This document shows, piece after piece, positions 23,519 through 52,700 of a stretch of 64,000 nt of DNA. Below the pieces are notes generated by a model. The model was given only the letters and a program-made list of their open reading frames with translations. It did not search any database and was not told the origin of the DNA. Every line of letters begins with the position of its first letter. Positions within the stretch are counted from its first letter, which is position 1. The position numbers and the translations under genes are program-made. Source of the DNA: Bacillota bacterium (GTDB lineage Bacteria; Bacillota; SHA-98; UBA4971). The stretch covers positions 10,340 to 74,339 of the forward strand of contig JAPXLY010000001.1 of NCBI GenBank assembly GCA_033809295.1, read 5' to 3'.

Positions 23519-23528
23519 AGGTGATGAA

Positions 23529-31539: not shown

Positions 31540-32217
31540 TTACCGTAAACTATGCTGTAAATTACACATGAACTTACACAAATCCTCTTTCGTATTTATG
31601 TTCACGAAAGACCGCAGTTCAGGGTCAATGGCCCGGATGTCAGTTTCATCCGCATAGCCTATGTTGACCTTGGAGAATACGCTTCTTACGCGGTAGTCTC
31701 CTTTTGCCAGGCTATCTCTGATCGGCGCCATGCATTTTCTGGAGTATAGTGCAAATAGCGGTTCGAGGTAAGAACCGAGCCTCGGGATAAAAATATCATA
31801 GCCGTCGCAACCTGTGACCATCCACCTTATCAGGTTGGAGTCAGCACACGGCATGTCGCAAGCAATAACGAAACAATAAGGGGTTTTGCACACTGACAGG
31901 GCACTGTAAATCCCAACCAGGGGTCCGTTTCCCTCTATACAATCGCCAATCGTCCGAACCCCGGGCACATGAAAGTCATCTGCATTCTTGGCTACAATAA
32001 GGATGTCTGAAAAGGCCTCTCTAAGTGCGTCAACAACATACATGATCATCTGCCTGCCATCAACGACTATGGAGGGCTTGTCCAAGCCCATCCTTCTACT
32101 TTTCCCCCCGGCGAGCACTGCACCGGTGATATGGTCGTTTCTCATTTTTGCAGCATAATTACGATTTACCGCATATTTGAGCCCGAATCCCCGGATGCAT
32201 AAGCTAAATTGCAGCAA
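31540..32217 (-). CDS. mobA: Molybdenum cofactor guanylyltransferase MobA
   Basis: AVLAGGKSRRMG motif. Probable start at the internal Met (MRNDHITGAVLAGG). 14-nt overlap with the fdhA end. Confidence 0.7.
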   Translation of the reverse strand: MLQFSLCIRGFGLKYAVNRNYAAKMRNDHITGAVLAGGKSRRMGLDKPSIVVDGRQMIMYVVDALREAFSDILIVAKNADDFHVPGVRTIGDCIEGNGPLVGIYSALSVCKTPYCFVIACDMPCADSNLIRWMVTGCDGYDIFIPRLGSYLEPLFALYSRKCMAPIRDSLAKGDYRVRSVFSKVNIGYADETDIRAIDPELRSFVNINTKEDLCKFMCNLQHSLR

Positions 32218-34981
32218 CCGGAGAAGCCAATTCCTGGTCGGGCGGTATCGGCCGGTCTTCTCCAGTAGGGTTTACCTGTACCTTTCCTTTGGCTTCATCA
32301 GGAAGGCGGTCTATTCGTACAGCACATACTTTAAACTCAGGGATTTTTGCCTTTGGATCCAAAGCCGGATTAGTCAGCACGTTGGCTGCCGCTTCAGCGA
32401 AGTGGAACGGCATAAATACCACACCGGGAGCAGGCCACGAAGTAACCATGGCCTTAACTTTGACTTCGCCTCTGCGGGAAGACACCAGAACCATCTCTCC
32501 GTCAGCGATACCCAGGTCTTTAGCAGTTTCCGGCGAGATTTCAATATACCCTTCAGGCCTATGGGCGTTGAGTGCCTTGGCCCTTCTGGTCATTGAGCCC
32601 GTATGGTAGTGATACAGCATCCGTCCTGTTGTAAGAGTTAACGGGTATTCTTCATCAGGGAGCTCTGCCGCGGGAATATATTCAACAGCAGTGAACAGTC
32701 CCAGGCCGCGGGAGAATTTGCCTTTATGCAAGTATGGCGTACCAGGGTGGTCCTCTGCAGGGCATGGCCACTGGAGCCCGTCGCCGGCTAACCGGCTATT
32801 AACTATTCCTCCGTAGATTGGCGTAAGCGAAGCGATCTCATCCAGTACTTCAGCAGGTGAGGAGTAGTTCATCGGATAACCCATCCGGTTTGATATCTCA
32901 GTGATGATTTCCCAGTCAGTCCTTGCTTCACCCGGAGGGTTTACTGCTTTTCTCACAAGCTGGACCCGTCTTTCCGTGCTGGTGAAAGTCCCCTCTTGTT
33001 CTGCGAAACAAGCGGAAGGAAGCACTACGTCTGCCAGTCTGGCTGTCTCCGTAAGAAAAATATCTTGCACGACCAGGAAGTCAAGATTCCTGAGTGCAGT
33101 TTCCACATGGTTGATGTCCGGGTCAGACACCATTGGGTTTTCACCCATAATGTAGAGGCCTTTGAGATTGCCATCGTAGGCGGCATTGATAGCTTCAGTT
33201 ACCGCAAGGCCTGGATTGGGTGGTAGTTCACATCCCCATGCCTTTTCGAATTTACCTCGAATGGCAGGGTCAGTGACTGCCTGATAACCCGGGAAAAGGT
33301 TGGGGAGTGCGCCCATGTCGCAGGCTCCTTGAACGTTATTCTGCCCGCGAAGGGGGTTGACTCCGACGCTTTCCTTACCCAGATTACCTGTGAGCATGGC
33401 CAAGTTTGCAGTTGAAAGCACGTTGTCGGTTCCGGTGGAATGCTGGGTTATGCCCATTGAGTAGATTAGGCTGGCCGTATCCGCTGTCGCGTAGGCTATT
33501 GCAGCTTCGATTATGTCGTCGGCTGGAACGCCGGTTATTTCTGATACGTGCTCAGGGGTATATTTACTTACAGAGTCCTTAAGAGCCTCAAAATTCTCAG
33601 TCCTTGTTTCGATGAAGTCCTTGTCGTGGAGGCCTTTGTCTATAATTACGTTCATCATACCGTTCAGAAGCGCAACGTCGGTACCGGGGCGATGCTGCAG
33701 GTAAATGTGTGCTTTTTGAGCCAGTTCAACTCTTCTGGGGTCTGCAACGATAAGTTTGGCGCCTCTTCTGAGTGCTTCTTTTACCTGAATACCGATTACA
33801 GGATGGTTTTCAGTAGTATTTGAACCAATGATGAACACTGCCTTGGCGTCTGCTATTTCGTGGATGGAGTTTGTCATAGCACCACTGCCGAAACTTGCGG
33901 CAAGTCCCGCAACGGTTGAAGCGTGACATAACCTGGCACAATGGTCAACGTTGTTAGTGCCTATAGTAGCTCTGGCAAGTTTTTGCATGAGATAGTTCGC
34001 TTCGTTTGTGCATTTGGCAGAGGAGAAAAATGCTACCGCATCAGGGCTGTGGCTATGTGCCAATTCGCCGAGTTTGGAACTCACGAGTTCAAGGGCTTCA
34101 TCCCAGGAGGCCTCCCTAAACCCATCGCCTTCCCTGATTAACGGTACCCTAAGCCGGTCCGGGTGATGGATAAAGTCAAGTCCGAACCTACCCTTAACGC
34201 AAGTGAATCCTTTGTTCACAGGGCCGTCCGCACCCGAAGCACCTACTACCTTGCCGTTTTTAACGTGCAGGTAAATGAGGCATCCTGTGCCACAGTACGG
34301 ACACGTGGTTTCCACTTTCGCGATCTCCCAAAAGCGGCCCTGCCCAATGCTTTGCTTTGGAATGAGGGCCCCTACAGGACAAACTTGCACGCAGTTGCCA
34401 CAAAATACGCATGGGGAGTTTTCTAACGGTTCTCCCCATGCAGGTGCCACTACAGTTTCATAGCCCCTGCCCACTGGGCTAATAGCATCCTGTCCTTGGA
34501 TGTCACTGCAAACAGCGACACATCGTCCGCATAAAATGCATTTACTTAAGTCTCTGATAAAGAAGGGGTTGGTATCGTCCAGTTCGGGAGCAGTTCTGTC
34601 TGAAGGGAATCTTCGCTCTTCCAGGCCGTACTCGTATGCGTACTCCTGAAGTTTGCAATCTCCGTTTTTTTCACAAGTCATACAATCCGTACGGTGGTTT
34701 GACAAGATGAGTTCCAGCACATTGCGTCTTGCTTGGCGCACAAATTCGGTATTAGTTTTGACTACCATGTTATTGACTACTGGAGTCACGCACGAAGCCA
34801 CAAGCGTCTTGGCCCTTTCAACTTCCACCAGGCATACTCTGCATCTGCCGGTTTCGTTTATATCCTTGAGATAACACAATGACGGTATCTCAATTCCGGC
34901 AGTTTTAGCAGCCTCCAAGATTGACGTTCCCTCTTCAACTTGAACCTGCGCACCGTCAATTGTCAGCGTTACCGAAGGCAT
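32204..34981 (-). CDS. fdhA: Formate dehydrogenase catalytic subunit (Mo/W-bisPGD), Cys-type, with NuoG-like N-terminal 2Fe-2S/4Fe-4S domains
   Basis: N-terminal 2Fe-2S ferredoxin, His-ligated cluster and two 4Fe-4S motifs. Molybdopterin oxidoreductase body. Active-site segment HCARLCH has Cys where Sec would be. No in-frame TGA. Confidence 0.85.
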   Translation of the reverse strand: MPSVTLTIDGAQVQVEEGTSILEAAKTAGIEIPSLCYLKDINETGRCRVCLVEVERAKTLVASCVTPVVNNMVVKTNTEFVRQARRNVLELILSNHRTDCMTCEKNGDCKLQEYAYEYGLEERRFPSDRTAPELDDTNPFFIRDLSKCILCGRCVAVCSDIQGQDAISPVGRGYETVVAPAWGEPLENSPCVFCGNCVQVCPVGALIPKQSIGQGRFWEIAKVETTCPYCGTGCLIYLHVKNGKVVGASGADGPVNKGFTCVKGRFGLDFIHHPDRLRVPLIREGDGFREASWDEALELVSSKLGELAHSHSPDAVAFFSSAKCTNEANYLMQKLARATIGTNNVDHCARLCHASTVAGLAASFGSGAMTNSIHEIADAKAVFIIGSNTTENHPVIGIQVKEALRRGAKLIVADPRRVELAQKAHIYLQHRPGTDVALLNGMMNVIIDKGLHDKDFIETRTENFEALKDSVSKYTPEHVSEITGVPADDIIEAAIAYATADTASLIYSMGITQHSTGTDNVLSTANLAMLTGNLGKESVGVNPLRGQNNVQGACDMGALPNLFPGYQAVTDPAIRGKFEKAWGCELPPNPGLAVTEAINAAYDGNLKGLYIMGENPMVSDPDINHVETALRNLDFLVVQDIFLTETARLADVVLPSACFAEQEGTFTSTERRVQLVRKAVNPPGEARTDWEIITEISNRMGYPMNYSSPAEVLDEIASLTPIYGGIVNSRLAGDGLQWPCPAEDHPGTPYLHKGKFSRGLGLFTAVEYIPAAELPDEEYPLTLTTGRMLYHYHTGSMTRRAKALNAHRPEGYIEISPETAKDLGIADGEMVLVSSRRGEVKVKAMVTSWPAPGVVFMPFHFAEAAANVLTNPALDPKAKIPEFKVCAVRIDRLPDEAKGKVQVNPTGEDRPIPPDQELASPVAAI

Positions 34982-36917: not shown

Positions 36918-37036
36918 GGAGGAAACACCGGAGGAAATTGGTTGTCATTAGACATCGGTCACAGTTATAATGTATGATGGTAACCCGGGGCGTTCGGTAA
37001 TGCCCGGCTGCAACAGAGTATTTGGAGCTGCAATTT

Positions 37037-38797
37037 ATGAGACGGAAATTTCAGGTGTTAGATGACTTTTTTGCGCGACATCGGTATAGGTATGTCATAG
37101 GGGTGCTGTTCTTTCTCGCTGTTGATGTTCTTCAACTGCTGGTTCCACGGCTGCTCGGTAATATGACTGATGAGTTTCGAGAAGGCGTCTTGACAATGCA
37201 AGGACTCCTTCGTTACGTATTTCTTATTATCGGCATAGCCGTCCTTGTGGCAGTGGGAAGGTACTTCTGGCGCATCTACCTGTTTGGAACGGCAAGACTC
37301 CTTGACTATGCTCTGAGGAACAAGTTCTTTGCCCACCTTGAGACGCTATCCGCGGATTTCTTCAACAGGCACAAGACAGGCGAACTGATGGCACATGCTA
37401 CCAATGATATCCATGCAGTCCGCCATGCATTCGGACAAGGCATAATGTTATCGATAGACGCAGTATTTCTCACTATCGCCACTGTCTCGATTATGCTGAC
37501 TACTATTGATACTCGCCTTGTACTCCTGGGCCTTCTGCCGTTACCCTTCGTTGCCCTGGTCGTCACCGGGTTTTCCAGAGTGATACATTCGAGGTTTCTC
37601 AGAGTCCAAGAAGCTTTCGCCGGCCTTACTGACTTTGTTCAGGAGAATCTCAGCGGTATCCGAGTGGTCAAGGCTTTTGTCCAGGAAGAAGCTGAATTGG
37701 CAAGGTTCATGCATTCAAATGAGACGCTTGTTGCCACTAACATGCATTTAGTCAAGGTGTGGGGCCTTTTCTGGCCTCTTGTGCAGTATTTGGCCGGACT
37801 TAGCTTTGTGGTGGTACTGGGTTACGGTGGACGGTTGGTTGTCTTAGGTGACATAAGCCTCGGTGATTTCGTGGCATTTACGGGATATCTCGGAATAGCG
37901 ATATGGCCTATGATGGCAATAGGCTGGGTAGTCAACACTCTTCAACGAGGCATGGCGTCCATGGATAGGCTTAATCTGATATTCCGGGTACAGCCGAAAA
38001 TCACTGATCACGAGGATGCGGTGGATACTTCGGAGATTGAAGGGGAGATTGAATTTCGGGCTTTGACATTTGAGTATCCTGATGCGATTTCACCGGTGCT
38101 TCACGGAATCACCCTCCAAATCCCTCAAGGCATGACTCTGGGCATTCTTGGTCGTACAGGCAGTGGAAAAAGCACTCTTACAGATCTCCTCCTCAGAGTC
38201 TACGATCCTTCCCCCGGCGAGCTCCTCATTGATGGGATAGATATTACAAAGATCCCCTTGGCGATATTGAGGAGAGATATCGGCTATGTGCCGCAGGACG
38301 ACTTCTTGTTTTCAGCATCAATAGGGGAAAACATCGGATTTGCAAGTTCGGAGTTTTCTCGTGAAGAGGTGGAACACGCTGCTGAACTTGCAGGGGTCAA
38401 AGATGATATCCAGGGATTTCCCAAAGGGTTTGATACTCTTGTGGGCGAGCGGGGAGTTACCCTTTCCGGCGGGCAAAAACAGAGGGTTGCAATAGCGAGA
38501 GCGCTCGTTAAGGATCCCAGAATACTAATTCTCGATGACTGCTTCTCGGCAGTGGATACCGGAACAGAGGAGAGGATCCTCGAGTCACTGCGGGATGTAA
38601 GGCGGGGGAGGACGACTATCTTAATCTCCCATAGAATCTCCACTCTGAAGGAAGCGGATGAAATCATAGTCTTAGACGAGGGGCAAGTAGTCGAGAGGGG
38701 AGATCATGAGTCTCTTGTGGCTGCAGGGGGACTATATGCAGAGATTCATAGGCGACAATTGCTGGAAGCTGAACTCAGCTCTGATGAGGAGACATAA
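37037..38797 (+). CDS. ABC exporter, fused TMD-NBD half-transporter (heterodimer subunit 1)
   Basis: Six TM followed by Walker A GRTGSGKST, LSGGQKQR, Walker B LILDDCFSAVD. Confidence 0.8.
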   Translation: MRRKFQVLDDFFARHRYRYVIGVLFFLAVDVLQLLVPRLLGNMTDEFREGVLTMQGLLRYVFLIIGIAVLVAVGRYFWRIYLFGTARLLDYALRNKFFAHLETLSADFFNRHKTGELMAHATNDIHAVRHAFGQGIMLSIDAVFLTIATVSIMLTTIDTRLVLLGLLPLPFVALVVTGFSRVIHSRFLRVQEAFAGLTDFVQENLSGIRVVKAFVQEEAELARFMHSNETLVATNMHLVKVWGLFWPLVQYLAGLSFVVVLGYGGRLVVLGDISLGDFVAFTGYLGIAIWPMMAIGWVVNTLQRGMASMDRLNLIFRVQPKITDHEDAVDTSEIEGEIEFRALTFEYPDAISPVLHGITLQIPQGMTLGILGRTGSGKSTLTDLLLRVYDPSPGELLIDGIDITKIPLAILRRDIGYVPQDDFLFSASIGENIGFASSEFSREEVEHAAELAGVKDDIQGFPKGFDTLVGERGVTLSGGQKQRVAIARALVKDPRILILDDCFSAVDTGTEERILESLRDVRRGRTTILISHRISTLKEADEIIVLDEGQVVERGDHESLVAAGGLYAEIHRRQLLEAELSSDEET

Positions 38798-38800
38798 ATC

Positions 38801-40831
38801 ATGGCCATCCATCATGAAGATGAAGTACTGGGAAAAGCATACGACCGGAAGCTCATGAAAAGGCTGCTTAAGTACGCCTTGCCCTATCGATGGTTTCTTG
38901 TGGGATGTATAGCGCTTTTGCTGCTCATTACAGGACTGGATCTAGTGCAGCCTTATCTCATAAAGATCGCAATAGACAATCATATGAATGCCCTCACCGA
39001 ACCTATGCTGGCGTTTGCTCCAGGGGACGAACCGTGCCCGGGCATCGCATTTGACGAATACGTATTTGTCCGAGAGAGGGAACTTACAGGTAAGTCCGCG
39101 CCAGGTTACGAAAGTTCCCCGGAACCTATAAAGGCCAGGATTGAACAGGTGGGGGACAAGTATTACCTGCTAATGGAGTCTCCGGGCGATGTTATTCTAA
39201 GGCGAGAGCTGACAGGTGCCGAGTTGCGCGTATTCAAAGAGTATGATATTCGCGCTGTGACAAGGTTGGGCTTTATTCTACTCGGTGCTTTGACTCTTGC
39301 ATTTCTTCTCAATTACATACAGGTTTATGCTCTTCAGTACACAGGCTTGAAGATTGTCTCAAGCATGAGGCTTGAGGTTTTCCGGCATTTGCAGCGCTTG
39401 TCATTGTCTTTCTTCGACAAGAACCCTATAGGCCGGCTTGTCACCAGAGTAACCAATGACATGGACGCACTGAATGAGATGTACACTGCGGTTTTGGTGA
39501 ACTTGTTCAAAGATGTTTTCCTTCTTGCCGGAATCATCATAGTGATGTTGAAGATGAATGTTAGGCTTGCACTGGTCAGTTTCGCTATGCTGCCTGTAAT
39601 ATTCACGGTTACGGCGATATTTCGCAAGAAGGCCAGGGACGCGTATAGGGCAGTCAGGGTAAGGCTCGCCAGGATCAATGCCGCTATGGCTGAGAATATC
39701 TCGGGAATGCGCATAATTCAGATTTTCGGCAGGGAAAAAAAGAAATTCGAGGAGTTTGACCGGGTCAATCACGACTACTTCCGTGCCGGTATGCAAGAAC
39801 TCAGAGTATACGCGATTTTCAGGCCTGCCATGGATCTTATCTCGTCTCTTGCTCTTGCGCTTCTAATTTGGTTTGGCGGAAGGCATGTAATGTGGGGCAC
39901 ACTGGAATTCGGTGTGCTTTTCGCGTTCACCAATTACCTGCAGCAATTCTTCCGCCCTATTAATGATCTTACTGAGAAATACAATATTATGCAGGCTGCC
40001 ATGGCTTCGGCAGAACGAATCTTCATGCTTCTTGACGCTTGCGAAGTTGAGCCTGATCCTCCGGAACCCGTAGCCTTCCGAAGACCAAAAGGAGAGATTG
40101 AATTTCAGAATGTATGGTTTGCATACAACGAAAACGACTGGGTATTAAGGGATGTCAGCTTTCGCATTGAGCCGGGTGAAACCTGCGCTTTTGTAGGCGC
40201 GACAGGGGCGGGAAAGACCTCAATCATCAGCCTGATAGGACGGATGTATGAGATATCCCGTGGGCGAATACTCATCGACGGGGTGGATATCAGAGATATA
40301 CCCAGGCATGAGTTGCGACGTCACATAGGCGTAGTACAGCAGGATGTATTCTTGTTTACGGGGGACGTTAAAAGCAACATAAGGTTGGGTGACAGTGGCA
40401 TCACCGATGACCAAGTGCGGGAAGCTGCCGCTTTCGTAAACGCTGACAAGTTTATAGGCAGACTCCATGGAGGGTATGACGCGCCTGTCAGGGAGAGAGG
40501 CGTTACGTTATCAGCCGGTGAGAGGCAGCTCTTGGCGTTTGCACGGGCATTGGCGAGAGATCCTGCCATACTCGTCTTAGATGAAGCTACCGCAAGTATT
40601 GACACTGAGACTGAAGCCCTTATCCAGGACGCTCTGACAAAGCTGATTCGTGGAAGGACTACTCTTGTTGTGGCCCATAGACTGTCAACGATTCAGAATG
40701 CAGATAAGATTATCGTAATCCACAAAGGAAGGATTAGAGAGATCGGAACTCACCAGGAGCTGCTGGCAAAGCACGGCATTTACCATCAACTTTATCTTCT
40801 TCAGTACAGAGAGCAGACAGAAGTATCGTAG
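38801..40831 (+). CDS. ABC exporter, fused TMD-NBD half-transporter (heterodimer subunit 2) with enlarged extracytoplasmic loop
   Basis: Walker A GATGAGKTS, LSAGERQ, Walker B LVLDEATASID. About 100-aa insertion between TM1 and TM2. Confidence 0.8.
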   Translation: MAIHHEDEVLGKAYDRKLMKRLLKYALPYRWFLVGCIALLLLITGLDLVQPYLIKIAIDNHMNALTEPMLAFAPGDEPCPGIAFDEYVFVRERELTGKSAPGYESSPEPIKARIEQVGDKYYLLMESPGDVILRRELTGAELRVFKEYDIRAVTRLGFILLGALTLAFLLNYIQVYALQYTGLKIVSSMRLEVFRHLQRLSLSFFDKNPIGRLVTRVTNDMDALNEMYTAVLVNLFKDVFLLAGIIIVMLKMNVRLALVSFAMLPVIFTVTAIFRKKARDAYRAVRVRLARINAAMAENISGMRIIQIFGREKKKFEEFDRVNHDYFRAGMQELRVYAIFRPAMDLISSLALALLIWFGGRHVMWGTLEFGVLFAFTNYLQQFFRPINDLTEKYNIMQAAMASAERIFMLLDACEVEPDPPEPVAFRRPKGEIEFQNVWFAYNENDWVLRDVSFRIEPGETCAFVGATGAGKTSIISLIGRMYEISRGRILIDGVDIRDIPRHELRRHIGVVQQDVFLFTGDVKSNIRLGDSGITDDQVREAAAFVNADKFIGRLHGGYDAPVRERGVTLSAGERQLLAFARALARDPAILVLDEATASIDTETEALIQDALTKLIRGRTTLVVAHRLSTIQNADKIIVIHKGRIREIGTHQELLAKHGIYHQLYLLQYREQTEVS

Positions 40832-40848: not shown

Positions 40849-40878
40849 TTTGCCGTATCCGATATCCCATTGTATAAT
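40849..40878 (+). promoter_or_regulatory. Putative sigma-A promoter for the sigma-54 activator gene (TTTGCC-18-TGTATAAT)
   Basis: Perfect TATAAT with an upstream TG. Lies just inside the ORF-track N-terminal extension of the activator ORF. Confidence 0.4.
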
Positions 40879-40900
40879 GTGTTGTGTGGGGGGGAGTAGG

Positions 40901-42193
40901 TTGCCGGGATTTGTCTTTGTCGATGACGATAAGTGTAATAGGTGTGGCGTGTGTATTCCGAACTGCCCTGTTGACGCCATATCCTCTGTGAGAGATAGAA
41001 TCATCGTGGATCCGCAAAGATGCGACGGATGCGGCGCATGCTTCAAGGTGTGCCCTGAAACCGCGTTCAGGCTTTCAGACGATCTTAAGGCAGTTTTGTG
41101 GGTATTGGCTTCAGGCGGGCAGGTGTCAAAAGAGCTTGATCAAACCTTTGCCGAAGCTCTTCCAGGTGTCGATAAAGATCGCATTACCAAAGCTGCCGGG
41201 CTTCTCCTGTCCTGGGAATCTCAGGATGCTAAGAAGTCCCGTGATTCCGCGGGAAACCCTATCATTGCATACAGCGTGGAAATGGGCAAAGTGTTGCAGG
41301 TAGCGACTAAGGTAGCACACGTGACCACGACTATTCTCATCCTGGGCGAATCAGGAGTCGGAAAAGAAGTGATCGCGCGATTCATCCATAATGCAAGCCT
41401 TCGCAAGAGTGGCCCCTTTGTCACCATAAACTGCGGAGCAATCCCTCCGAATCTTCTTGAATCCGAGTTATTCGGGTACGAGGCCGGCGCATTCACCGGT
41501 GCAAAACGCGAAGGCAAACCCGGGATGATAGAAGTCGCGTCTTCCGGCACACTCTTTCTTGACGAGATATCTGATCTCCCTCTTGATCTTCAAGTGAAAC
41601 TACTTCAAGTTATTCAGGAACGTCGTCTTACGCGGGTCGGCGGGATTCATCCTATTGAGGTTGATATCAGGATAATTGCCGCCACCAACAGGGACCTGGC
41701 AAAAATGGTGGAAAGAGGGGAGTTTCGTGCTGATCTCTTCTACAGACTGAATGTGGTCCCAATAGTCATCCCACCCCTGCGCAGCAGACGGGATGATATC
41801 ATTCCCTTGATTTATCATTTCTTAGCGAAACATAACAATACTCACCGGTACAACAAAACGATTTCCCGGGAGACAAGGGAAGTATTAACCCAGTACTCAT
41901 GGCCCGGTAACGTCAGGGAGCTTGAAAACCTTATAGAACGGCTTGTGGTCACAGTAGAAGGAGACGAAATCGGTGTAGAGGACTTGCCTCAGTATGTTAA
42001 GGAACGGGGTGTCAATTCCAATTCCAAGGTGACAGTGGAAGGAGTAATACCACTCCGTGAGGCTGTGGAAGAGGTTGAAAGGCAGTTAATCAAGCAGGCC
42101 AAGGAAGAGCATGAGACTACTTATGAAATAGCTGAGGCCCTCGGGGTGAACCAATCCACCGTTGTCAGGAAGCTAAAGAAATATGCACATTAA
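40901..42193 (+). CDS. Sigma-54-dependent transcriptional activator with N-terminal di-[4Fe-4S] ferredoxin-type sensor domain
   Basis: Two CxxCxxCxxxCP motifs (CNRCGVCIPNCP, CDGCGACFKVCP). AAA+ sigma-54 interaction domain with GAFTGA (ESELFGYEAGAFTGA). C-terminal Fis-type HTH. TTG start after GGGGGAG. Confidence 0.8.
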   Translation: MPGFVFVDDDKCNRCGVCIPNCPVDAISSVRDRIIVDPQRCDGCGACFKVCPETAFRLSDDLKAVLWVLASGGQVSKELDQTFAEALPGVDKDRITKAAGLLLSWESQDAKKSRDSAGNPIIAYSVEMGKVLQVATKVAHVTTTILILGESGVGKEVIARFIHNASLRKSGPFVTINCGAIPPNLLESELFGYEAGAFTGAKREGKPGMIEVASSGTLFLDEISDLPLDLQVKLLQVIQERRLTRVGGIHPIEVDIRIIAATNRDLAKMVERGEFRADLFYRLNVVPIVIPPLRSRRDDIIPLIYHFLAKHNNTHRYNKTISRETREVLTQYSWPGNVRELENLIERLVVTVEGDEIGVEDLPQYVKERGVNSNSKVTVEGVIPLREAVEEVERQLIKQAKEEHETTYEIAEALGVNQSTVVRKLKKYAH

Positions 42194-42207
42194 TGCACGT
42201 GTGCATT
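42192..42207 (+). promoter_or_regulatory. Palindrome AATGCAC-GT-GTGCATT, candidate enhancer (UAS) site
   Basis: 7-bp arms with a 2-bp spacer, overlapping the activator stop, about 320 bp upstream of the sigma-54 promoter. Confidence 0.3.
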
Positions 42208-42376: not shown

Positions 42377-42415
42377 GCACGCCCGAATCCGTGCCGGTAA
42401 TGCACCGGCGCATTA
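42377..42415 (+). promoter_or_regulatory. Paired palindromes (GCACG-N8-CGTGC and TAATGC-ACCGGC-GCATTA), candidate enhancer sites
   Basis: 100-135 bp upstream of the sigma-54 promoter. Second palindrome shares the AATGCAC half-site with the 42192 element. Confidence 0.3.
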
Positions 42416-42512
42416 ATTCCGGCGGATTTTGTCATTGCTTGTCTGTTCGCCGATTGACTTTGTGACGCCTTTCACAAGGCTTTAGCGGAAATATGCCTGA
42501 TCCGGTGTGGAC

Positions 42513-42528
42513 TGGCACGATCCTTGCA
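42513..42528 (+). promoter_or_regulatory. Sigma-54 (-24/-12) promoter TGGCAC-N5-TTGCA for the hydrogenase operon
   Basis: Exact consensus GG-N10-GC spacing, 80 nt upstream of the hydC start. Confidence 0.7.
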
Positions 42529-42607: not shown

Positions 42608-43102
42608 ATGGCCTGTGAGACGTGTACATGTATTAGCGAGATTACTGATGAACAAAGGGAGAAAGTCAGGGAGATAATCAAACACTACAAAGGGAAACCG
42701 GGTGTCCTGATTCAAACTCTACACGAAGCCCAGCAAGTGGTGGGTTATCTTCCCAGGGAAATCCAGGTTATGATTGCTGAGGGGCTGGATATTCCTCTCA
42801 GCGAGGTTTACAGCGTTGTAACGTTTTACGCGTTATTTTCGCTGAAGCCTAAGGGTAGGAATGTTATCAGTGTTTGCAAGGGAACGGCATGTTATGTTAA
42901 GGGCGTGGACGCCATAATGGAGAAACTCGAAGAAGACTTGGGGATCAAAGGGGAAGACACCACTGATGACGGAAGGTTCTCGGTGGAGATTGTCAGGTGT
43001 ATGGGAGCTTGCGGCCTTGGACCCGTGGTCAGAGTGAACGAGGATATATACGCGAGGGTCAAGCCGGATCAAATGAAGGAAGTATTGGCTAAGTATGAGT
43101 GA
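42608..43102 (+). CDS. hydC: [FeFe]-hydrogenase / NADH dehydrogenase 24-kDa-type subunit (HydC/NuoE-like, 2Fe-2S thioredoxin-like)
   Basis: NuoE-family sequence with CKGTAC…CMGACGLGP cluster motifs. Confidence 0.8.
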   Translation: MACETCTCISEITDEQREKVREIIKHYKGKPGVLIQTLHEAQQVVGYLPREIQVMIAEGLDIPLSEVYSVVTFYALFSLKPKGRNVISVCKGTACYVKGVDAIMEKLEEDLGIKGEDTTDDGRFSVEIVRCMGACGLGPVVRVNEDIYARVKPDQMKEVLAKYE

Positions 43103-43179
43103 TGTCATGACGTTTCCGGCTTGTTTTGAGCGTCGGTCTAAATTTGTGTGGTTGTTCCAGGATAAGGAGGCTTGGTAAC

Positions 43180-46100
43180 ATGGGTTCCTACAGGACACAT
43201 GTTCTGGTTTGCGGCGGGGCGGGTTGTGCCTCGTCAGGATGCAAAGATGTTGAACAGGCGCTTAATGATGAAATCACCAAGCAAGGCCTCGCCGACGAAA
43301 TCAGGGTTATCGTTACAGGATGTATGGGTCCTTGCGAATTGGGCCCCATCATTATTGTCTATCCGGAAGGGGTCCTTTATAGAAATCTCAAACCCGACGA
43401 CGCCCGTTTAATAGTCAAGGAGCATCTTTTGAAAGGGAGAATAGTTGACAGACTTCTTTACGTAACCCCGGACACAATGCAAAAAGTCCCTACGTATTCT
43501 GACATGGTTTTCTTCAACAGACAGCTTCGGATTGCACTTCGAAACACAGGCAAGATCGATCCTCTGGAAATAGAGGAGTACATAGCTGAAAACGGATATG
43601 CAGCCCTTGCAAAGGTCCTCTCCGAGATGACTCCGGAAGACGTGATAAACGTTCTGAAGAGTTCAGGCCTTCGAGGGAGAGGAGGGGCAGGGTTCCCCAC
43701 CGGTTTGAAATGGGACTTTACACGGAGAGCCAAGGGGGACCAGAAGTACGTAGTATGTAATGCTGACGAAGGCGACCCCGGTGCGTTCATGGACAGAAGC
43801 ATTATCGAAGGGGATCCCCATGCGATAATTGAGGCCATGTCAATCGCAGGCTACACTGTCGGGGCGAATCAGGGATATGTGTACGTCAGAGCCGAATATC
43901 CCCTGGCAGTTGCCCATCTTACACACGCTATCAACCAGGCCAGAGAGTATGGGCTCTTGGGCAAGGATATTCTCGGCAAAGGCTTCGATTTCGATTTGGA
44001 TATAAGGGTTGGAGCAGGCGCTTTTGTATGCGGAGAAGAGACGGCTCTTCTTGCTTCAGTCGAGGGTAGGCGCGGAGAACCAAGGCCCAGGCCGCCTTTC
44101 CCTGCCAGTAAAGGGTTGTTCGGAAAACCGACTCTTCTCAATAACGTAGAGACTTACGCGAATGTTCCTCCGATAATCCTCCGGGGCCCTGAGTGGTTTG
44201 CAGGCATCGGAACGGAAAAGAGCAAAGGCACGAAAGTGTTTGCCCTCGCAGGCAAAATCAACAATACAGGCCTTGTTGAGGTCCCCATGGGTACGCCCTT
44301 GGGAGAAGTCGTCTTTGATATCGGAGGAGGGATCCCCGACGGCAAAAAGTTTAAGGCAGCGCAGACCGGAGGGCCTTCAGGCGGATGCGTCCCAGCGGAA
44401 TTCCTCAATACGCCCATGGACTATGAGTCCTTAACCAAGCTTGGGACGATCATGGGCTCAGGCGGCCTCGTGGTAATGGACGAAGACACATGTATGGTAG
44501 ACTTGGCCAGGTTCTTCTTAGAGTTTACGCAGGATGAATCCTGTGGGAAGTGTGCTCCGTGCCGTATAGGTACAAAGAGGATGCTGGAGATTCTGACCAG
44601 AATCACCCGAGGCGAAGGACGCGAAGGAGACATCGAGCGTCTGATTAAACTGGGAACATGGATAAAAGAGACAGCCCTCTGCGGTTTGGGGCAGACTGCC
44701 CCGTCTCCGGTTCTCACTACTATACGTTACTTCAGAGACGAATACGAAGCTCACATAAGAGACAAGAAATGTCCGGCTTCAGTATGTGCTTCCTTGTTTG
44801 AATCACCGTGTCAGAACGCGTGTCCTGCTGATGTTGATGTGCCAAGGTACATCAATCTCATCAGACAGAAGAGATATCAGGAAGCTGTGAAGCTGATAAA
44901 GGAGAAAAACCCGTTCCCTGCGGTGTGCGGCCGGGTTTGCACTCATCCGTGTGAAGGCAAATGCAGAAGAGCCCAACTTGACCAGGCGCTTGCCATTTGC
45001 GAGCTAAAGCGGTTCGCTGCTGACTATGAGCTCGAGAATCCAATCCCTGTGGAGAAGCCTGAGGTTCAGAAAGGTACTAAAGTGGCAATTGTCGGGGCCG
45101 GCCCTGCAGGCCTTACCGCAGCTTACTACCTGGCTCAACTGGGACACGAAGTGACGGTGTTCGAAGCCTTACCGAAACCGGGTGGCATGTTACTTGTGGG
45201 AATCCCCGAGTACAGACTGCCCAAGGACATCCTCGGCGCGGAGATCGACTACATTGAGAGAATGGGAGTCCGGATACGCACAGGAGAAAAGGTAGGTAAG
45301 GACGTAACCATTGATGACCTGAAGGCTGACGGGTACAAGGCAATACTCATCACAGTCGGTGCCAACGTTAGCCAGAGGCTTGGAGTGCCAGGGGAAGACC
45401 TGGACGGCGTAATCGGCGCTGTTGAGTTCCTCCAAGACGTCAATTTGGGCAGAAATCCAAAGGTTGGCAAGAAGGTTGCAGTAATAGGAGGAGGTAACGC
45501 CGCTATAGACGCTGCCAGAACTGCTCTTCGTCTGGGGGCATCTGAGGTTCACATTATATACAGGCGCCAGCGAGAAGACATGCCTGCAGACAAAGCGGAA
45601 ATAGCTGAGGCTGAACGCGAAGGGATCAAGATACACTTCCTGACTGTGCCGGTGAAAATGATAGGTAGAGAGGGCAAGCTCACTAACATGGAGTGTGTCA
45701 GAATGTCCTTGGGCGAATTCGACCGCAGCGGACGAAGGCGTCCTGTTGAGATAGAGGGGTCGAATTTCATTGTTGATGTGGACATGGTTATCCCTGCCAT
45801 AAGCCAGAGGCCCGATATGTCTGTCTTGCCCGGTAGATCCGGAATTGAGACCACGAGATGGTCTACGATAGTTGCAGACACAAGGACTCTTGCCACAGGC
45901 GAACCCGGAATATTCGCAGGTGGTGACTGTGTACACGGGCCTGATACTGTAATTCAGGCGATTGCAGACGGTAGACGCGCTGCAATGGAGATTGATAAGT
46001 ACCTTGGCGGAACCGGGGAGATTCCTGTAAGCCCTGACCTTGGTCGGGAGCAGATCGGCGAAATCCACGAGGAACAGATGCCAAGGCAACATCCAGGTGT

Positions 46101-46212
46101 GCTACCCGTTGAGCGGAGATACGCCAACTTCAACGAAGTCGTTGATAAGTTCACTGAGGCTCAAGCACTCTTTGAAGCTTCGCGCTGTCTCCGGTGCGAC
46201 GTGAAGGACTAA
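43180..46212 (+). CDS. hydB: HydB/NuoF-like flavoprotein subunit fused to a C-terminal GltD-like NAD(P)H oxidoreductase domain
   Basis: N-terminal thioredoxin-like 2Fe-2S domain. NuoF FMN/NADH site GLRGRGGAGFPTGLKW and 4Fe-4S motifs. GltD-type Fe-S linker. Rossmann motifs VAIVGAGPAGLTAA and VAVIGGGNAAIDAA. Confidence 0.8.
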   Translation: MGSYRTHVLVCGGAGCASSGCKDVEQALNDEITKQGLADEIRVIVTGCMGPCELGPIIIVYPEGVLYRNLKPDDARLIVKEHLLKGRIVDRLLYVTPDTMQKVPTYSDMVFFNRQLRIALRNTGKIDPLEIEEYIAENGYAALAKVLSEMTPEDVINVLKSSGLRGRGGAGFPTGLKWDFTRRAKGDQKYVVCNADEGDPGAFMDRSIIEGDPHAIIEAMSIAGYTVGANQGYVYVRAEYPLAVAHLTHAINQAREYGLLGKDILGKGFDFDLDIRVGAGAFVCGEETALLASVEGRRGEPRPRPPFPASKGLFGKPTLLNNVETYANVPPIILRGPEWFAGIGTEKSKGTKVFALAGKINNTGLVEVPMGTPLGEVVFDIGGGIPDGKKFKAAQTGGPSGGCVPAEFLNTPMDYESLTKLGTIMGSGGLVVMDEDTCMVDLARFFLEFTQDESCGKCAPCRIGTKRMLEILTRITRGEGREGDIERLIKLGTWIKETALCGLGQTAPSPVLTTIRYFRDEYEAHIRDKKCPASVCASLFESPCQNACPADVDVPRYINLIRQKRYQEAVKLIKEKNPFPAVCGRVCTHPCEGKCRRAQLDQALAICELKRFAADYELENPIPVEKPEVQKGTKVAIVGAGPAGLTAAYYLAQLGHEVTVFEALPKPGGMLLVGIPEYRLPKDILGAEIDYIERMGVRIRTGEKVGKDVTIDDLKADGYKAILITVGANVSQRLGVPGEDLDGVIGAVEFLQDVNLGRNPKVGKKVAVIGGGNAAIDAARTALRLGASEVHIIYRRQREDMPADKAEIAEAEREGIKIHFLTVPVKMIGREGKLTNMECVRMSLGEFDRSGRRRPVEIEGSNFIVDVDMVIPAISQRPDMSVLPGRSGIETTRWSTIVADTRTLATGEPGIFAGGDCVHGPDTVIQAIADGRRAAMEIDKYLGGTGEIPVSPDLGREQIGEIHEEQMPRQHPGVLPVERRYANFNEVVDKFTEAQALFEASRCLRCDVKD

Positions 46213-47957: not shown

Positions 47958-48026
47958 TACAGGACTTATGCATGCAAGCCGGTTAGCGCGAATCCCGCTT
48001 ACATGCAAGTGATTGATAAGGAATCG

Positions 48027-48064
48027 TCAGCGCCATGGCATTCCACATGGCGCTGGCTTTTTCT
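48027..48064 (+). terminator. Rho-independent terminator after hydA
   Basis: CAGCGCCATG…CATGGCGCTG hairpin followed by a T-run. Confidence 0.6.
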
Positions 48065-48217: not shown

Positions 48218-49036
48218 GTGGATCTTGTGACGTATTTGAAAAACTCCAAATTGAGGCGAAATAATACGCAATCAAGAATGAAATTTATGCTATTGGTGGG
48301 TTTATCCTTAATCCTGTGTGTTGCTCTGCAAGATGTGCCTATGTTAATGTGCAGTGTCTCGGCGGAGAATTCGTCTGATGAGGTAGTTCTGGAGTTTGAT
48401 ACCCTATCAGATAAGACCCATACGTATCAGGTTTTGATAAGTGAGACTGTATACTCAGAGGGGCAGAGACTGACAAATCTCTATAGAGAAGATTTTAAGA
48501 TACAGGAGACTGCTGTCGCAAACGGCAAGGTCTTACGGGCTGTTGTGTGTGTAGGCAGCGTCGCTCCTGTAGGCGGGGAAATCAGGAAGCTGGATCCTTC
48601 GGACTACTACTTGACTGTTGACAAGACCGGCCGAATTATTGAGGTACGAGGCCTCAAACCTTGGGACGGGCGTCGTTTGGAAACTATCTGGCTGGCCCAG
48701 GCGCTTCTCCCTGAGCATCCTGTTCGCCCAGGAGATACGTGGACGGTAAATGATGCCTTTTTCTCTATGACTTCAGCCGGGAAGACGCCGGAGAAACGTG
48801 CCTACCGGTTCCTGGGAACAGAGGACCTGGGTACTGCCACTGCATATAAGATTGGATATGAAATTGTCGGTAAGGGACAAGATGGCTTGCAAGACTACAC
48901 TTATGTCTCTACCGGCTCCTTCTATCTGGCGTCCGGAACCCTTGTGAAGCTGGATGCATCTGAAATGCTGACTTACGCCGGTAGTTCCGAGGACTCCAAA
49001 ATCATTACGATGGTACAGGTAAACATTGTAAATTAG
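48218..49036 (+). CDS. Hypothetical exported protein
   Basis: Signal-peptide-like MKFMLLVGLSLILCVA segment. No motif recognised. Alternative start at 48278. Confidence 0.5.
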   Translation: MDLVTYLKNSKLRRNNTQSRMKFMLLVGLSLILCVALQDVPMLMCSVSAENSSDEVVLEFDTLSDKTHTYQVLISETVYSEGQRLTNLYREDFKIQETAVANGKVLRAVVCVGSVAPVGGEIRKLDPSDYYLTVDKTGRIIEVRGLKPWDGRRLETIWLAQALLPEHPVRPGDTWTVNDAFFSMTSAGKTPEKRAYRFLGTEDLGTATAYKIGYEIVGKGQDGLQDYTYVSTGSFYLASGTLVKLDASEMLTYAGSSEDSKIITMVQVNIVN

Positions 49037-49394: not shown

Positions 49395-49706
49395 ATGGAG
49401 ACGATGACAGGGACGAGTAGGTTGCATCCCGGAGTTTCAGCGAACCGAGGGAGGTGTAAGTCGGGGCTCAGGAGCGCCGAAAATCACCCTGGAGTAGCCA
49501 CGCGAAATCAGAGACGGTACTTTGTGCCGGACGACGAGAGTAGACGTGGCCGGGCCCTCCCGATACAGAGGTATGGCATTTTGGACGCAGCATGGCTTAG
49601 GCTGGGTTTAATGTGTCTATGAGTGGGTTGCCAGAGGCAGCCAATTTGGGTGGTACCGCGAGAGTTGAGTCTCCCGTCCCGATTTCGGGGCGGGAGATTT
49701 TTGTAC
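49395..49706 (+). promoter_or_regulatory. T-box riboswitch leader (Ile-specific, putative) controlling ileS
   Basis: T-box sequence AATTTGGGTGGTACCGCG at 49643-49660. Terminator CTCCCGTCCC…GGGGCGGGAG plus T-run. Candidate AUC specifier in GAAAATCACC. Confidence 0.75.
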
Positions 49707-49738: not shown

Positions 49739-52700
49739 ATGTTCAGGAAAGTCGAACCAGGAAGGAACATGCCTCATATGGAGGAGGAAATCCTGGAATT
49801 CTGGAAGAAGCAGGGGATTTTTCAAAAAACGCTGCAGAAAACCAAAGACGGGCCGAGATTTATATTCTATGAAGGCCCGCCGACTGCAAATGCAATGCCC
49901 CACCCAGGGCATGTGCTTACTCGTGTCATGAAGGATCTCATTCCCAGGCATCGGACAATGTGCGGCTACCATGTGCCGAGAAAAGGCGGATGGGACACTC
50001 ATGGGCTTCCTGTGGAACTGGAGATAGAAAAGGAATTAGGCATAAGCGGGAAGCCTCAGATAGAGGAGTACGGTGTCGAGAATTTCATCGAGAAGTGCAA
50101 GGAAAGCGTATTCCGCTACAAGAGAGAGTGGGAACGCATGACAGAGCGCGTAGGTTTTTGGATTGACTTGGACAACGCCTACGTGACGTATGAGGACTAC
50201 TACATTGAGTCTGTATGGTGGGCTCTGAAAAAGATATGGGATAAAGGCCTCCTGTATAAAGGGCATAAGGTGGTCCCGTATTGTCCAAGGTGTGGGACAG
50301 CCTTGTCAAGTCATGAGGTTGCCCAGGGCTATCAAGAGGTTGAAGACCCGTCTGTTTATGTCAAATTCTCGCTAAAGGGTGAAGATGATACAGCGTTTCT
50401 TGTATGGACCACAACTCCGTGGACTCTTCCGTCTAACGTAGCCCTGGCAGTACATGCGGACGCTATCTACGTGAAAATTGGACTGACCGGCACAGGCAGC
50501 AAATTAATTCTGGCAAAGGAACTTCTGAGTTCTGCAATCCCTGATGATGAAGGCTACGAGGTCATAGATGAATTCAAAGGCGAATCTTTGGTCGGAGCAG
50601 AGTATGAGCCCTTGTTCCGGTATACCGTGCCACGTAAGAAAGCTTGGTATGTGGTGAGCCAGGACTTTGTCACTCTTTCAGACGGCACAGGTATAGTCCA
50701 TTTGGCCCCTGCGTTCGGCGAAGATGACATGAATGCGTCCTTGCAGCATGATCTGCCTGTAATCCAACTGGTAGACGAGGAAGGAAGGTTCACCGAGGAA
50801 GTGACGGAGTGGAAAGGGATGCCTGTCAAAGAAGCCGATCCTTTGATCATAGAAGACCTCAAGTCCCGCGGCAGTCTTTACAGAAGCCAGGAATACGCTC
50901 ACACCTATCCATTCTGTTGGAGATGTGACACTCCGCTTCTCTATTACGCTCGGACTTCGTGGTTTATTAAGACTACTGCCGTAAAGGACGCCTTGCTGCG
51001 TAACAACAACGCAGTATCTTGGTATCCGCAATACATCAAAGATGGGCGCATGGGAAACTTCCTGGAAAACGTCATTGATTGGGCAGTCAGCAGAGAACGT
51101 TACTGGGGCACTCCTCTCCCTATCTGGATATGTGATGATTGTGGCGAAACCCATTGTGTAGGGAGTATTGAGGAGCTTAAGGAAATGGCATTTGAGCTTC
51201 CTGAAAAGCTGGAACTCCACAGGCCTTATATAGACAAGGCACGTCTTCGTTGCCCGAAGTGCGGAGGCTCCATGGGAAGAACCAAAGAGGTTATAGACGC
51301 GTGGTTTGACTCAGGGTCTATGCCATTTGCCCAGTGGCACTATCCTGTGGAAAACGATGATGAATTCAAGCGCAATTTCCCGGCGGACTTCATCAGTGAG
51401 GCTATAGATCAGACCCGTGGATGGTTCTACACCTTGCTTGTTATCTCAACTCTGCTTTTCGACAAGCCTCCGTTTGAGAGTGTCCTCGTGCTGGGGCATG
51501 TACTTGACGCGGAAGGGATGAAAATGAGCAAGAGCAAGGGGAATGTGGTGGACACGTGGGAAGTGTTCAACACATACGGGGCTGACGCATTTCGTTGGTA
51601 CCTCTATACCGTCAATCCTCCCTGGAACCCGACACGTTTTTACCTTGAAGCGATAGGCGAATCGCAGCGGAGATTCTTGTCGACTTTATGGAACGTGTAT
51701 TCCTTCTATGTTCTTTATGCGAACGTAGACGGGTTTGATCCCGGTGCGTATCAACTACCGGTGGAAGAGAGAGGGATTCTTGACAGGTGGATTATCTCAC
51801 GGTTCAACAGGCTCGCAGAGACCGTGCAGACTGAGCTTGAAGCCTACAGCATTACACCTGCAGCCAGGGCTATAGAAGAATTTACAGATGACTTGAGCAA
51901 CTGGTACGTAAGGCGATCAAGGCGCCGCTACTGGGGCGCTGAGATGACTCAGGACAAAATTGCGGCATATCTTACGTTGCACGAGATGCTTGTAGGCCTC
52001 TCGAAGTTGCTTGCCCCGTTTACTCCCTTTATATCAGAGGAGATATATAGGAATCTCGAAGGAGAAAGGAGAAACGGAGCCCCTGAAAGCGTCCACCTTT
52101 GCGAGTACCCTGTCTGTAGTCAGAATCTGATGGATCCTGAATTGGAGCAAAACATGGCAGTTGCAAGGAAACTGGTAACCTTAGGCAGGTCTGCCAGAAG
52201 CAAGGTTAACATCAAGATTAGGCAGCCTCTCAGTGAAATGGTGGCTGTTCTTCAGGATCCCAGGGGTCAAAAGGCTGTTTGCGAGCTGGCGACGATAATT
52301 AAAGAGGAACTGAATGTTAAATCCATCCGGGTGGCAGAGGATGTCAGCGAGTTTGTGGCCTATAGAGTAAAACCCAGGTTTGACCTCCTGGGTCCGAAAT
52401 ACGGCAAGCTTATGAGACATATTGTGGCCGGGCTGGAGGGCCTAAATCCCAGAGACATAGTGGCTGAGCTTGAAGATAAGGGACGTGTTGACATTCCTTG
52501 CGGGGAAGAGGCCGTATCTGTCCTCGCTGAGGAGCTGATTGTTGACACTGTGGAGCAGGAAGACTTTGCCATTGAAAGTGAGGGAGAGGTAACCTGCGCT
52601 CTTCGCACGGCTTTGTCTCGTGAGTTAGTCATGGAGGGTCTTGCCAGAGAGATGGTAAACAAGATCCAGACAATGCGGAAGGAAGCTGACTTCAATGTTG

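Follow-up and report, generated by a model that had tools for sequence, protein, structure and literature searches.

We analysed a 64-kb stretch of the genome of a Bacillota bacterium (contig JAPXLY010000001.1, positions 10,340 to 74,339; the whole stretch is called the window below), and its gene at 40901–42193 is predicted to encode a bacterial enhancer-binding protein (bEBP, or EBP) that senses through an N-terminal ferredoxin-type (Fer4) domain and is very probably the dedicated activator of the adjoining [FeFe]-hydrogenase (hyd) operon. The identity of the EBP and its regulon, taken jointly, can be stated with high confidence, and it is likely, on comparative grounds, that the Fe-S clusters of the regulator are functional. 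That the clusters report specifically on the ferredoxin pool or the redox state of the cell is a more tentative proposal, which we put somewhat short of probable, and we lean slightly towards the best explanation taken whole, as it is developed below. The features of the regulator gene are as follows.

40850–40878, plus strand: predicted sigma-A-type promoter, TTGCCG-17-TATAAT (10/12 matches in a consensus scan)
40890–40896, plus strand: Shine-Dalgarno sequence GGGGGAG of the regulator, read from the sequence
40901–42193, plus strand: Fer4-EBP gene, 430 amino acids (aa), TTG start codon and TAA stop codon
40907–41074, plus strand: 2x[4Fe-4S] ferredoxin-type domain, residues 3–58 (Pfam Fer4)
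41075–41260, plus strand: linker, residues 59–120 (~62 residues), free of Cys (sequence and structure models)
41261–42022, plus strand: sigma-54 AAA+ domain and lid (Pfam Sigma54_activat, AAA_lid_14)
42053–42184, plus strand: C-terminal Fis-type helix-turn-helix (HTH), residues 385–428 (Pfam HTH_50, E 1.3e-12; HTH_8, E 3.4e-5)

Profile-HMM annotation with Pfam, which had been proposed as a check of the original prediction, matched Fer4, Sigma54_activat, AAA_lid_14 and HTH_50/HTH_8 in the protein, and because the frame is also uninterrupted, the predicted architecture of a single polypeptide, namely a bEBP that starts with a two-cluster ferredoxin domain, is borne out. The open reading frame (ORF) table gives this frame as 40850–42193 (plus strand), with a stop-free translation. 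Orthologous proteins begin with M/L-P-G-(F/H)-V-F-V-D, aligned with the first codon of the window protein; the start codon is TTG in the clade of the window and a GC-rich clade uses ATG; a GGAGG-type Shine-Dalgarno sequence stands before it in all orthologues, and the TATAAT box about 20 nt 5' of the start is kept in orthologous loci of both clades. Since N-termini, start codon, Shine-Dalgarno sequence and TATAAT box are all conserved there, we regard TTG 40901 as the true start; a start downstream of the ferredoxin motifs, the first doubt attached to the original prediction, is not found. Two adjacent genes, one for a small ferredoxin and the next for an EBP without a sensor, might be read from database entries for homologues that start internally (P0042 at 327 aa, P0038 and P0286). 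This arrangement is scarcely credible, because both in the window and in the translated orthologous loci the frame runs from Fer4 to AAA+ without a stop, the N-terminal start and its Shine-Dalgarno sequence are conserved, and P0042 (6001–6984 in locus L065), which we tried as a sensor-less orthologue that would have spoken for a dispensable sensor, and rejected, has a start mis-called inside a real ORF of ~472 aa (5566–6984).

The motor and output domains are those of a standard EBP. Sigma54_activat (PF00158) covers residues 121–288 (E 2e-69) and AAA_lid_14 residues 294–374 (E 8e-26); Walker A is GESGVGKE (residues 149–156, nt 41345–41368) and Walker B is LFLDE (residues 218–222, nt 41552–41566). 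The GAFTGA motif, said from the outset to be intact, is exact at residues 196–201 (nt 41486–41503) and invariant among homologues, and the recognition-helix residues NQST.VRK of the HTH are invariant in orthologues. An AlphaFold2 (AF2) model of the full-length protein, built with a 35-sequence alignment, has a mean predicted local distance difference test score (pLDDT) of 83 and a standard EBP core. Foldseek returned only AAA+ EBP structures for this model, with NtrC1 (1ny5), FlrC and FleQ as the top matches, among which no EBP with a ferredoxin-type sensor occurred. Walker A/B, GAFTGA and a Fis-type HTH, together with candidate enhancers upstream and a −24/−12 target promoter, characterise the protein as a bEBP as far as its sequence can tell.

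At the N-terminus, Fer4 (PF00037) matched with an E value of 3.5e-13 and 49.2 bits (cut-off 21.1) over two stretches, residues 6–28 and 35–53, and six further dicluster Fer4 models, including Fer4_10, Fer4_6, Fer4_7 and Fer4_9, matched above their cut-offs. Both Cys motifs have the form CxxCxxCxxxCP: CNRCGVCIPNCP lies at residues 12–23 (nt 40934–40969) and CDGCGACFKVCP at residues 41–52 (nt 41021–41056). Their starts are separated by 29 residues, which is the spacing of clostridial 2x[4Fe-4S] ferredoxins. A two-cluster ferredoxin of 75 residues had been predicted; the two motifs stand and the length does not, the ferredoxin part comprising only ~58 residues, while the linker, put at roughly 60 aa, has ~62 residues (59–120). 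In the full-length AF2 model, pLDDT is 74–86 over residues 1–60, where short strands and helices form a small alpha/beta N-terminal domain; prediction of the N-terminal part alone was poor (mean pLDDT 58.6, and 44–57 over the ferredoxin residues). For the linker, AF2 predicts three helices (62–70, 74–86 and 94–115) and a disordered tether (107–118), and orthologues share the linker motif AVLW.LA.GG...D.AF..ALPG. When we searched 1.84 billion proteins exhaustively with the N-terminal 120 residues, the matches were mostly generic ferredoxin domains and only two fragments spanned the linker; P0261, which was considered as a linker-containing relative, proved to be a CbiA/ParA-Fer4 protein and was rejected.

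The eight ligand Cys are invariant in full-length orthologues with 54–98% identity (alignments A1, A2 and A4), which refutes the second doubt attached to the original prediction, that the Cys motifs might not be conserved in orthologues: 8/8 are kept in full-length proteins down to 54% identity. We also calculated the ratio of nonsynonymous to synonymous substitution rates (dN/dS) by region for the window and L006, the least saturated orthologue pair (dS 0.3–0.7), and obtained 0.088 for Fer4, 0.23 for the linker, 0.043 for AAA+ and 0.086 for the HTH. Because the value for Fer4 is close to that for the HTH, the Fer4 domain appears to be constrained like the DNA-binding domain and is not a decaying remnant; judged by these rates, it is under purifying selection. 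This selection weighs against the view that the regulator is blind to any signal, with a structural or vestigial Fer4 domain on a constitutive EBP and with control left to Rex and to the expression of the regulator itself. Such a view could draw on the conserved Rex operator in the looping region and on the labile sensor content of the locus, where variants with an H-domain, FeS domain, PAS domain or single Cys motif occur (both described below). But the Fer4 domain is constrained like the HTH and nearly like AAA+, its eight Cys are invariant across the whole range of identity, and the sole apparent sensor-less homologue checked, P0042, is the gene-call artefact mentioned above, so that we consider a signal-blind activator very improbable.

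The evidence that connects the regulator with the hydrogenase operon comes from the intergenic region downstream of it. The elements of this region, in which UAS denotes a candidate upstream activating sequence, and the genes of the operon are as follows; the palindromic sites are given without a strand.

42192–42207: UAS1 AATGCACGTGTGCATT, candidate enhancer, ATGC-N6-GCAT palindrome overlapping the regulator stop codon
42212–42227: UAS2 GATGCTTGTTTGCATT, candidate enhancer, ATGC-N6-GCAT palindrome 20 bp from UAS1
42399–42414: UAS3 AATGCACCGGCGCATT, candidate enhancer, ~108 bp upstream of the −24 element
42460–42477: Rex-type operator TTGTGACGCCTTTCACAA (TTGTGA-N6-TCACAA type, 18 bp), between UAS3 and the promoter
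42513–42528, plus strand: predicted sigma-54 promoter, −24/−12 element TGGCACGATCCTTGCA (TGGCAC-N5-TTGCA), zero-mismatch match
42608–43102, plus strand: hydC, NuoE/HoxE-like [2Fe-2S] subunit, 164 aa (Pfam 2Fe-2S_thioredx, E 1e-51; NCBIfam NuoE, HoxE)
43126–46212, plus strand: hydB::gltD, NuoF-like FMN/NADH module fused to a GltD/NfnB-like FAD/NADPH module, 1028 aa
46233–47957, plus strand: hydA, [FeFe]-hydrogenase catalytic subunit, 574 aa (Pfam Fe_hyd_lg_C, E 1.7e-105)
48026–48057, plus strand: predicted strong intrinsic terminator of the hyd operon (12-bp stem, 8 of its pairs GC, ahead of a T-run)

The sigma-54 promoter that had been supposed at the hydrogenase operon is confirmed at the level of motifs, TGGCACGATCCTTGCA being the sole zero-mismatch match to the sigma-54 promoter in the window, and GG-N10-GC elements are present at the corresponding position in orthologous loci. 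A scan of these loci with the perfect consensus found none, because the orthologues have TGGCAT/TGGTAT variants, and a relaxed scan recovered the elements. AATGC-N6-GCATT is restricted to UAS sites within the window (2 found, 0.11 expected). The arms of the UAS1 palindrome are kept and its core is variable in all orthologous loci, and the 20-bp spacing from UAS1 to UAS2 is kept in L003, L006, L009, L010, L012–L017 and L063. The operator TTGTGACGCCTTTCACAA departs at one position from the consensus published for Rex operators, TTGTGAANNNNTTCACAA (PMC6391272), and is the unique match to it in the window. Nine other orthologous loci have Rex-type sites with one mismatch or none to the full consensus and four more have weaker matches (2–3 mismatches); none was seen in L004 and L014. 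In the GC-rich clade, a second Rex-like box abuts the −24 element. Positions of Rex-type sites in relatives are as follows.

L001 9564; L006 8560; L009 8563; L010 8560; L012 8565; L016 8949; L017 8659 and 8704; L018 1957: Rex-type sites

When six orthologous intergenic regions were aligned, the alignment was noise outside the islands UAS1, UAS2, UAS3, Rex box, −24/−12 element and ribosome-binding site, with UAS2 always 20 bp from UAS1, and a motif scan of 13 other loci recovered all or most of the enhancer, Rex and promoter elements in nearly all of them; more than 10 orthologous loci share the layout of enhancers and promoter ahead of the operon. This island pattern is a phylogenetic footprint and constitutes our main evidence that the EBP activates the hyd promoter and that a Rex-type repressor acts there too. 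Together with conserved synteny, the enhancer palindromes and the −24/−12 element uphold the earlier proposal that the regulator is wired directly to a sigma-54-dependent hydrogenase operon. The position of the predicted operator implies repression of an EBP-dependent promoter, and since it lies between enhancer and promoter, a second input, NADH/NAD+, is also implied; Rex reports NADH/NAD+ only.

The operon hydC-hydB::gltD-hydA presumably encodes a HydABC-type [FeFe]-hydrogenase, electron-confurcating or bifurcating. HydA carries the H-cluster motifs TSCSPGW, MPCTAKK and MACPGGC, and passes the NCBIfam model NF040763 with 946 bits against a cut-off of 765. Its best match in the PDB is HydA1 of A. 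woodii (7q4v, E 2e-215), which has TSCSPGW in common with it and which, under the name given in the PDB, we take to be a subunit of the active bifurcating hydrogenase of that organism. These motifs and the NuoE-like and NuoF-like subunits are those expected of HydABC, and the enzyme departs from this type by the GltD fusion. HydB::GltD matched Complex1_51K, NADH_4Fe-4S, Fer4_20 and Pyr_redox_2 in Pfam, and NuoF and the NAD(P)-binding protein PRK12771 in NCBIfam; the fusion is kept in all orthologous operons examined and suggests that the hydrogenase also couples to NADP(H), and we found no description of such a HydB::GltD hydrogenase in the literature searched. Because of the TSCSPGW motif and the GltD module, we suspected an Stn-type transhydrogenase with a dead HydA. 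This candidate was rejected, since TSCSPGW is present in 7q4v, NF040763 is passed and the Stn architecture differs: in Stn/NfnABC (Bfu), GltD is fused to a NuoG/FdhF-like subunit without an H-domain (PMC10482914, PMC7483475), whereas here it is on NuoF and a true HydA is present.

On the basis of these features we propose the following mechanism. The C-terminal HTH would bind the three ATGC-N6-GCAT palindromes ~110–320 bp upstream of the −24/−12 promoter, and the AAA+ ring would open the sigma-54 closed complex via its GAFTGA loops. The ferredoxin-like 2x[4Fe-4S] domain at the N-terminus, joined to the ATPase through the three-helix linker, would be the sole input module. Electron exchange with ferredoxin or the low-potential pool, or with a ferredoxin-dependent enzyme, may set the oxidation state of both clusters, and this state may pass via the helical linker to the oligomerisation or ATPase activity of AAA+, so that the hydrogenase would be induced when ferredoxin is over-reduced. 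The Rex operator would add control by NADH/NAD+, and transcription would then follow the two electron donors of a confurcating HydABC, reduced ferredoxin and NAD(P)H.

The conserved Cys and the low dN/dS fit equally well a switch of cluster integrity (holo/apo), in which the clusters, through their destruction or failure to assemble, would report O2, reactive oxygen species, NO or the supply of Fe-S clusters or iron, and the ferredoxin pool would be uninvolved; the cluster-rich, O2-sensitive hydrogenase would then be made only in safe, iron-replete anoxia, in a manner like that of FNR or VnfA. Integrity sensing is the commonest mode of Fe-S transcription factors, and the operon encodes many Fe-S clusters and the O2-labile H-cluster. 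Metal chelators and superoxide generators inhibit VnfA, the sole EBP for which an Fe-S cluster is reported (PMC9542535). Two points speak against this switch, which we consider unlikely. By its sequence the domain appears to be a canonical low-potential dicluster ferredoxin derived from the F-cluster domain that relays electrons in hydrogenases, not a labile single-cluster site, and for a host that is apparently a spore-forming member of the Bacillota from biogas or digester material, exposure to O2 is probably uncommon. Electron exchange with the ferredoxin pool is the mode of sensing that we prefer, at the tentative level given at the beginning.

The relatives of the regulator bear on how such a sensor could have arisen. 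We compared the loci with the regulator neighbourhood, L001–L004 and L063–L068, and the same three-gene operon was found directly downstream of the regulator in every one of them; the identity of the regulator is 74% for L001/L002, 63% for L003 and 53% for L004. Genome and contig scans found the full-length protein in 13 species-level metagenome-assembled genomes, which are uncultured Bacillota except for one labelled Betaproteobacteria, several of them from biogas or digester samples, and public annotations of the homologues are generic. The database search for EBPs with Fer4 N-termini and for their neighbours, which had been recommended, found ~36 clusters with a Fer4-only architecture among the homologues closest to the regulator, with the hyd operon downstream in relatives; also near were proteins of 707–752 aa that combine Fer4 and Fe_hyd_lg_C with AAA+ and HTH, some of them also having PF04060.

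The latter belong to what we call hydrogenase-like EBPs, and one of them, CHY1547 of Carboxydothermus hydrogenoformans, was singled out already in 2005 as a sigma-54 regulator, probably responsive to H2, beside a hydrogenase cluster (PMC1287953). We found no experimental follow-up on hydrogenase-like EBPs in the literature searched. CHY1547, TherJR_2992, CFE_2753 and P0058 of Moorella naiadis have in common with the window protein the N-terminal two-motif Fer4, the AAA+/HTH chassis and hydrogenase neighbours, and P0058 is ~52% identical to it over residues 44–429. They differ in having an H-domain (PF02906) and a four-Cys FeS domain (PF04060), whereas the window protein has the Cys-free three-helix linker instead. 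Sensory hydrogenases of the HydS type are described with a C-terminal motif Cx2Cx4Cx16C and a domain set of F-cluster Fer4, H-domain, four-Cys domain and PAS (PMC6984386), and HydS (sub-classes M2e/M2f; HydS of T. maritima, HydA of T. mathranii) supplies the sensor modules that are seen across the regulator family. As described there, HydS is without AAA+ or a DNA-binding output, whereas the window protein is an F-cluster domain fused to a transcriptional output. Upstream of the same operon in other loci, the following sensor variants were found.

L063 (8001–10172) and L064: P0048, Fer4 and H-domain, with the four H-cluster-ligand Cys kept
L004 (8001–9425), L068 (378–1757) and L065 (5566–6984): P0040, P0039 and the L065 ORF, respectively, Fer4 and Cx2Cx4Cx16C
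L067 (4998–6383): P0049, PAS sensor
L066 (6001–7146): P0036, single Cys motif

The P0048 loci L063 and L064 have the tandem-plus-one layout of ATGC-N6-GCAT sites, the Rex-like box and the −24/−12 element, and the operon and UAS arrangement of the window is the same as theirs. The window regulator gave no match to the H-domain PF02906 in Pfam and has only a weak collinear trace of it, so it is not an EBP of the HydS type; it is also without the four-Cys PF04060/Cx2Cx4Cx16C motif, which P0039–P0041, the L065 ORF and P0058 have. With hhalign, its N-terminus aligned with the hydrogenase-like EBPs at a profile-profile E value of 1e-17 and its linker was weakly collinear with their post-Fer4 segment (P 0.0065); against catalytic HydA, the first helix of the linker alone aligned. 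Since different sensors, all from the domain set of HydS, stand at one locus, the window protein can be regarded as the minimal Fe-S version of them, and it appears to be a reduced relative of the hydrogenase-like EBPs within a HydS-derived sensor series. In the AAA+/HTH tree, the Fer4-only clade is monophyletic (98/100), as is the Fer4-H clade (100/100), and the Fer4-only clade adjoins a Fer4-FeS protein in the point tree.

Several observations weigh against this picture of reduction and of dual control. The N-terminal domain of the regulator is at least as close in score to generic ferredoxins as to hydrogenase-like EBPs, and the linker is only weakly indicated as a remnant of the H-domain; a multiple alignment sets it opposite the FeS-domain segment of P0039–P0041, and hhalign does not suggest an FeS origin. 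The AAA+/HTH tree groups the sensor types no further than the two clades named above, its deeper nodes being unsupported, so an origin by domain loss rests on parsimony and distribution. The single-motif variant P0036 exists, and therefore the sensor can erode. Finally, neither rpoN nor rex turned up in those ORFs that were scanned in the 64 kb of the window.

Since the H-domain is absent and only the F-cluster domain is left, the regulator would bind neither an H-cluster nor H2 and would not sense H2 directly. H2 could be sensed in trans if the ferredoxin domain docks a separately encoded sensory or catalytic hydrogenase (HydS-like or HydABC) and accepts electrons from it; the regulator would then still report H2, as is presumably the case for the relatives with an H-domain. 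In relatives at this locus the H-domain is part of the regulator itself and the four Cys that ligate the H-cluster are conserved, fused sensors have often split into two proteins in evolution, and Fer4 is the one element kept in all Fe-S variants. No HydS-like gene, however, adjoins the regulator in the window or in the orthologous loci examined, and we rate such sensing in trans as quite unlikely; in the mechanism that we prefer, the electrons come from the ferredoxin pool.

Some further observations concern the loci compared above. The ORF of 472 aa in L065 carries two Fer4 motifs and the four-Cys motif, and the short entries P0038 and P0286 may be similar gene-call artefacts or fragments. 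An extra ORF of 151–160 aa lies between hydC and hydB::gltD in L004 (10434–10901), L065 (8033–8515) and L068 (2642–3097), which are loci with Fer4-FeS regulators; these ORFs have no Pfam match and are absent from the window. Upstream of the regulator in L063 (6654–8001) and L067 (3577–4998), the loci with H-domain and PAS variants, there are ~1.35–1.4 kb without called genes.

That sigma-54 EBPs control hydrogenase genes, and that they have metallo-sensor relatives, is already known. HoxA/HupR, which are of the NtrC family, and FhlA are sigma-54 EBPs dedicated to [NiFe]-hydrogenase or formate-hydrogenlyase operons; the former sense via a receiver and an H2-sensing kinase cascade and the latter via formate-binding GAF domains, with no intrinsic ferredoxin domain known in either. 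The match of the window regulator to the NCBIfam model for FhlA is below the cut-off. VnfA/AnfA of Azotobacter vinelandii are similar to it in being EBPs for which an Fe-S cluster, required for activity, has been proposed in the N-terminal regulatory part (PMC9542535). VnfA differs in that a [3Fe-4S] cluster is suggested on a short Cys motif inside GAF, whereas the sensor in the window is predicted to be an autonomous dicluster ferredoxin fold; no GAF domain was found in the protein by Pfam, and so it is not an Fe-S EBP of the VnfA type. Hydrogenase and fermentation operons controlled by Rex in Gram-positive anaerobes likewise have a TTGTGAANNNNTTCACAA-type palindrome upstream of the hydrogenase operon. 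Rex operators are chiefly familiar as sites of repression within the promoters under their control (PMC5355995), whereas the operator in the window lies in the enhancer-promoter looping region of a sigma-54 promoter. The architecture had been called uncommon, and a catalogue of 2019 agrees: among 490 EBPs of Clostridiales, two have Fer4-Fe_hyd_lg_C-FeS and none is Fer4-only (PMC6615313). In the literature searched, we found no description of the Fer4-only sensor, of the regulon and its operator set, of the series of sensors at one locus or of the combination of sigma-54 and Rex. The original prediction overlooked the Rex-type operator, the HydB::GltD fusion and the sensor-swapping relatives.

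The rest of the window can be described briefly. Directly upstream of the regulator, at 37022–40831, there are two ABC exporter genes of the type in which transmembrane and nucleotide-binding domains are fused; the pair, after pyruvoyl arginine decarboxylase and arginase, is kept in L003 and L066, not in L001 and L004, and is probably unrelated to the regulator. Just past the hyd terminator there is an ORF of 272 aa (48218–49036) with no Pfam or NCBIfam match, and Pfam-less ORFs of 226–260 aa occupy the matching position in L003 and L004. A T-box leader at 49395–49684 (RF00230, 101 bits) precedes the gene for isoleucyl-tRNA synthetase (49739–52939), and a cobalamin riboswitch at 20090–20279 (RF00174, 89 bits) lies ahead of ORFs from 20301 (plus strand); a cobalamin adenosyltransferase gene is at 23493–24128. 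On the minus strand, the region 29519–34981 contains the gene for an alpha subunit of formate dehydrogenase that has a NuoG/HydA-like Fe-S region at its N-terminus (32204–34981), accompanied by mobA (31540–32217) and fdhD (30649–31482), and neither a sigma-54 promoter nor an ATGC-N6-GCAT enhancer was seen in this region. A tRNA gene is located at 29383–29454 (minus strand; RF00005, 69 bits).

Fermentation, acetogenesis and syntrophy have ferredoxin as their central low-potential carrier, and to our knowledge the sensing of the redox state of ferredoxin by anaerobes is poorly understood. The window documents a predicted dual control, by sigma-54 and Rex, of a hydrogenase with an unusual HydB::GltD subunit, in uncultured Bacillota from metagenomes of biogas and digester material. 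The regulator is a compact one-component protein in which a ferredoxin domain is the sole input and for which the sites, promoter and target operon have been defined by comparative genomics, and it therefore offers a tractable system for asking whether sensing of the ferredoxin pool exists. The regulator and its relatives, which differ in having an H-domain, a four-Cys, a PAS or a Fer4-only sensor, form a natural series of domain deletions with which the transfer of signals from sensory hydrogenase modules to an output can be dissected, and the regulator might serve as a component of redox-responsive gene circuits in anaerobic hosts. In its boldest form, which we doubt rather more than we believe, the stripping of a HydS-type regulator would have produced a direct ferredoxin-pool sensor that equilibrates with the ferredoxin of the cell, gates the sigma-54 AAA+ motor and makes, with Rex, a two-input gate. 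If this is true, the signal would have been shifted from H2 to the redox state of ferredoxin by reduction of the sensor to its electron-relay domain, and these bacteria would express the hydrogenase only when reduced ferredoxin and NAD(P)H are both in excess.

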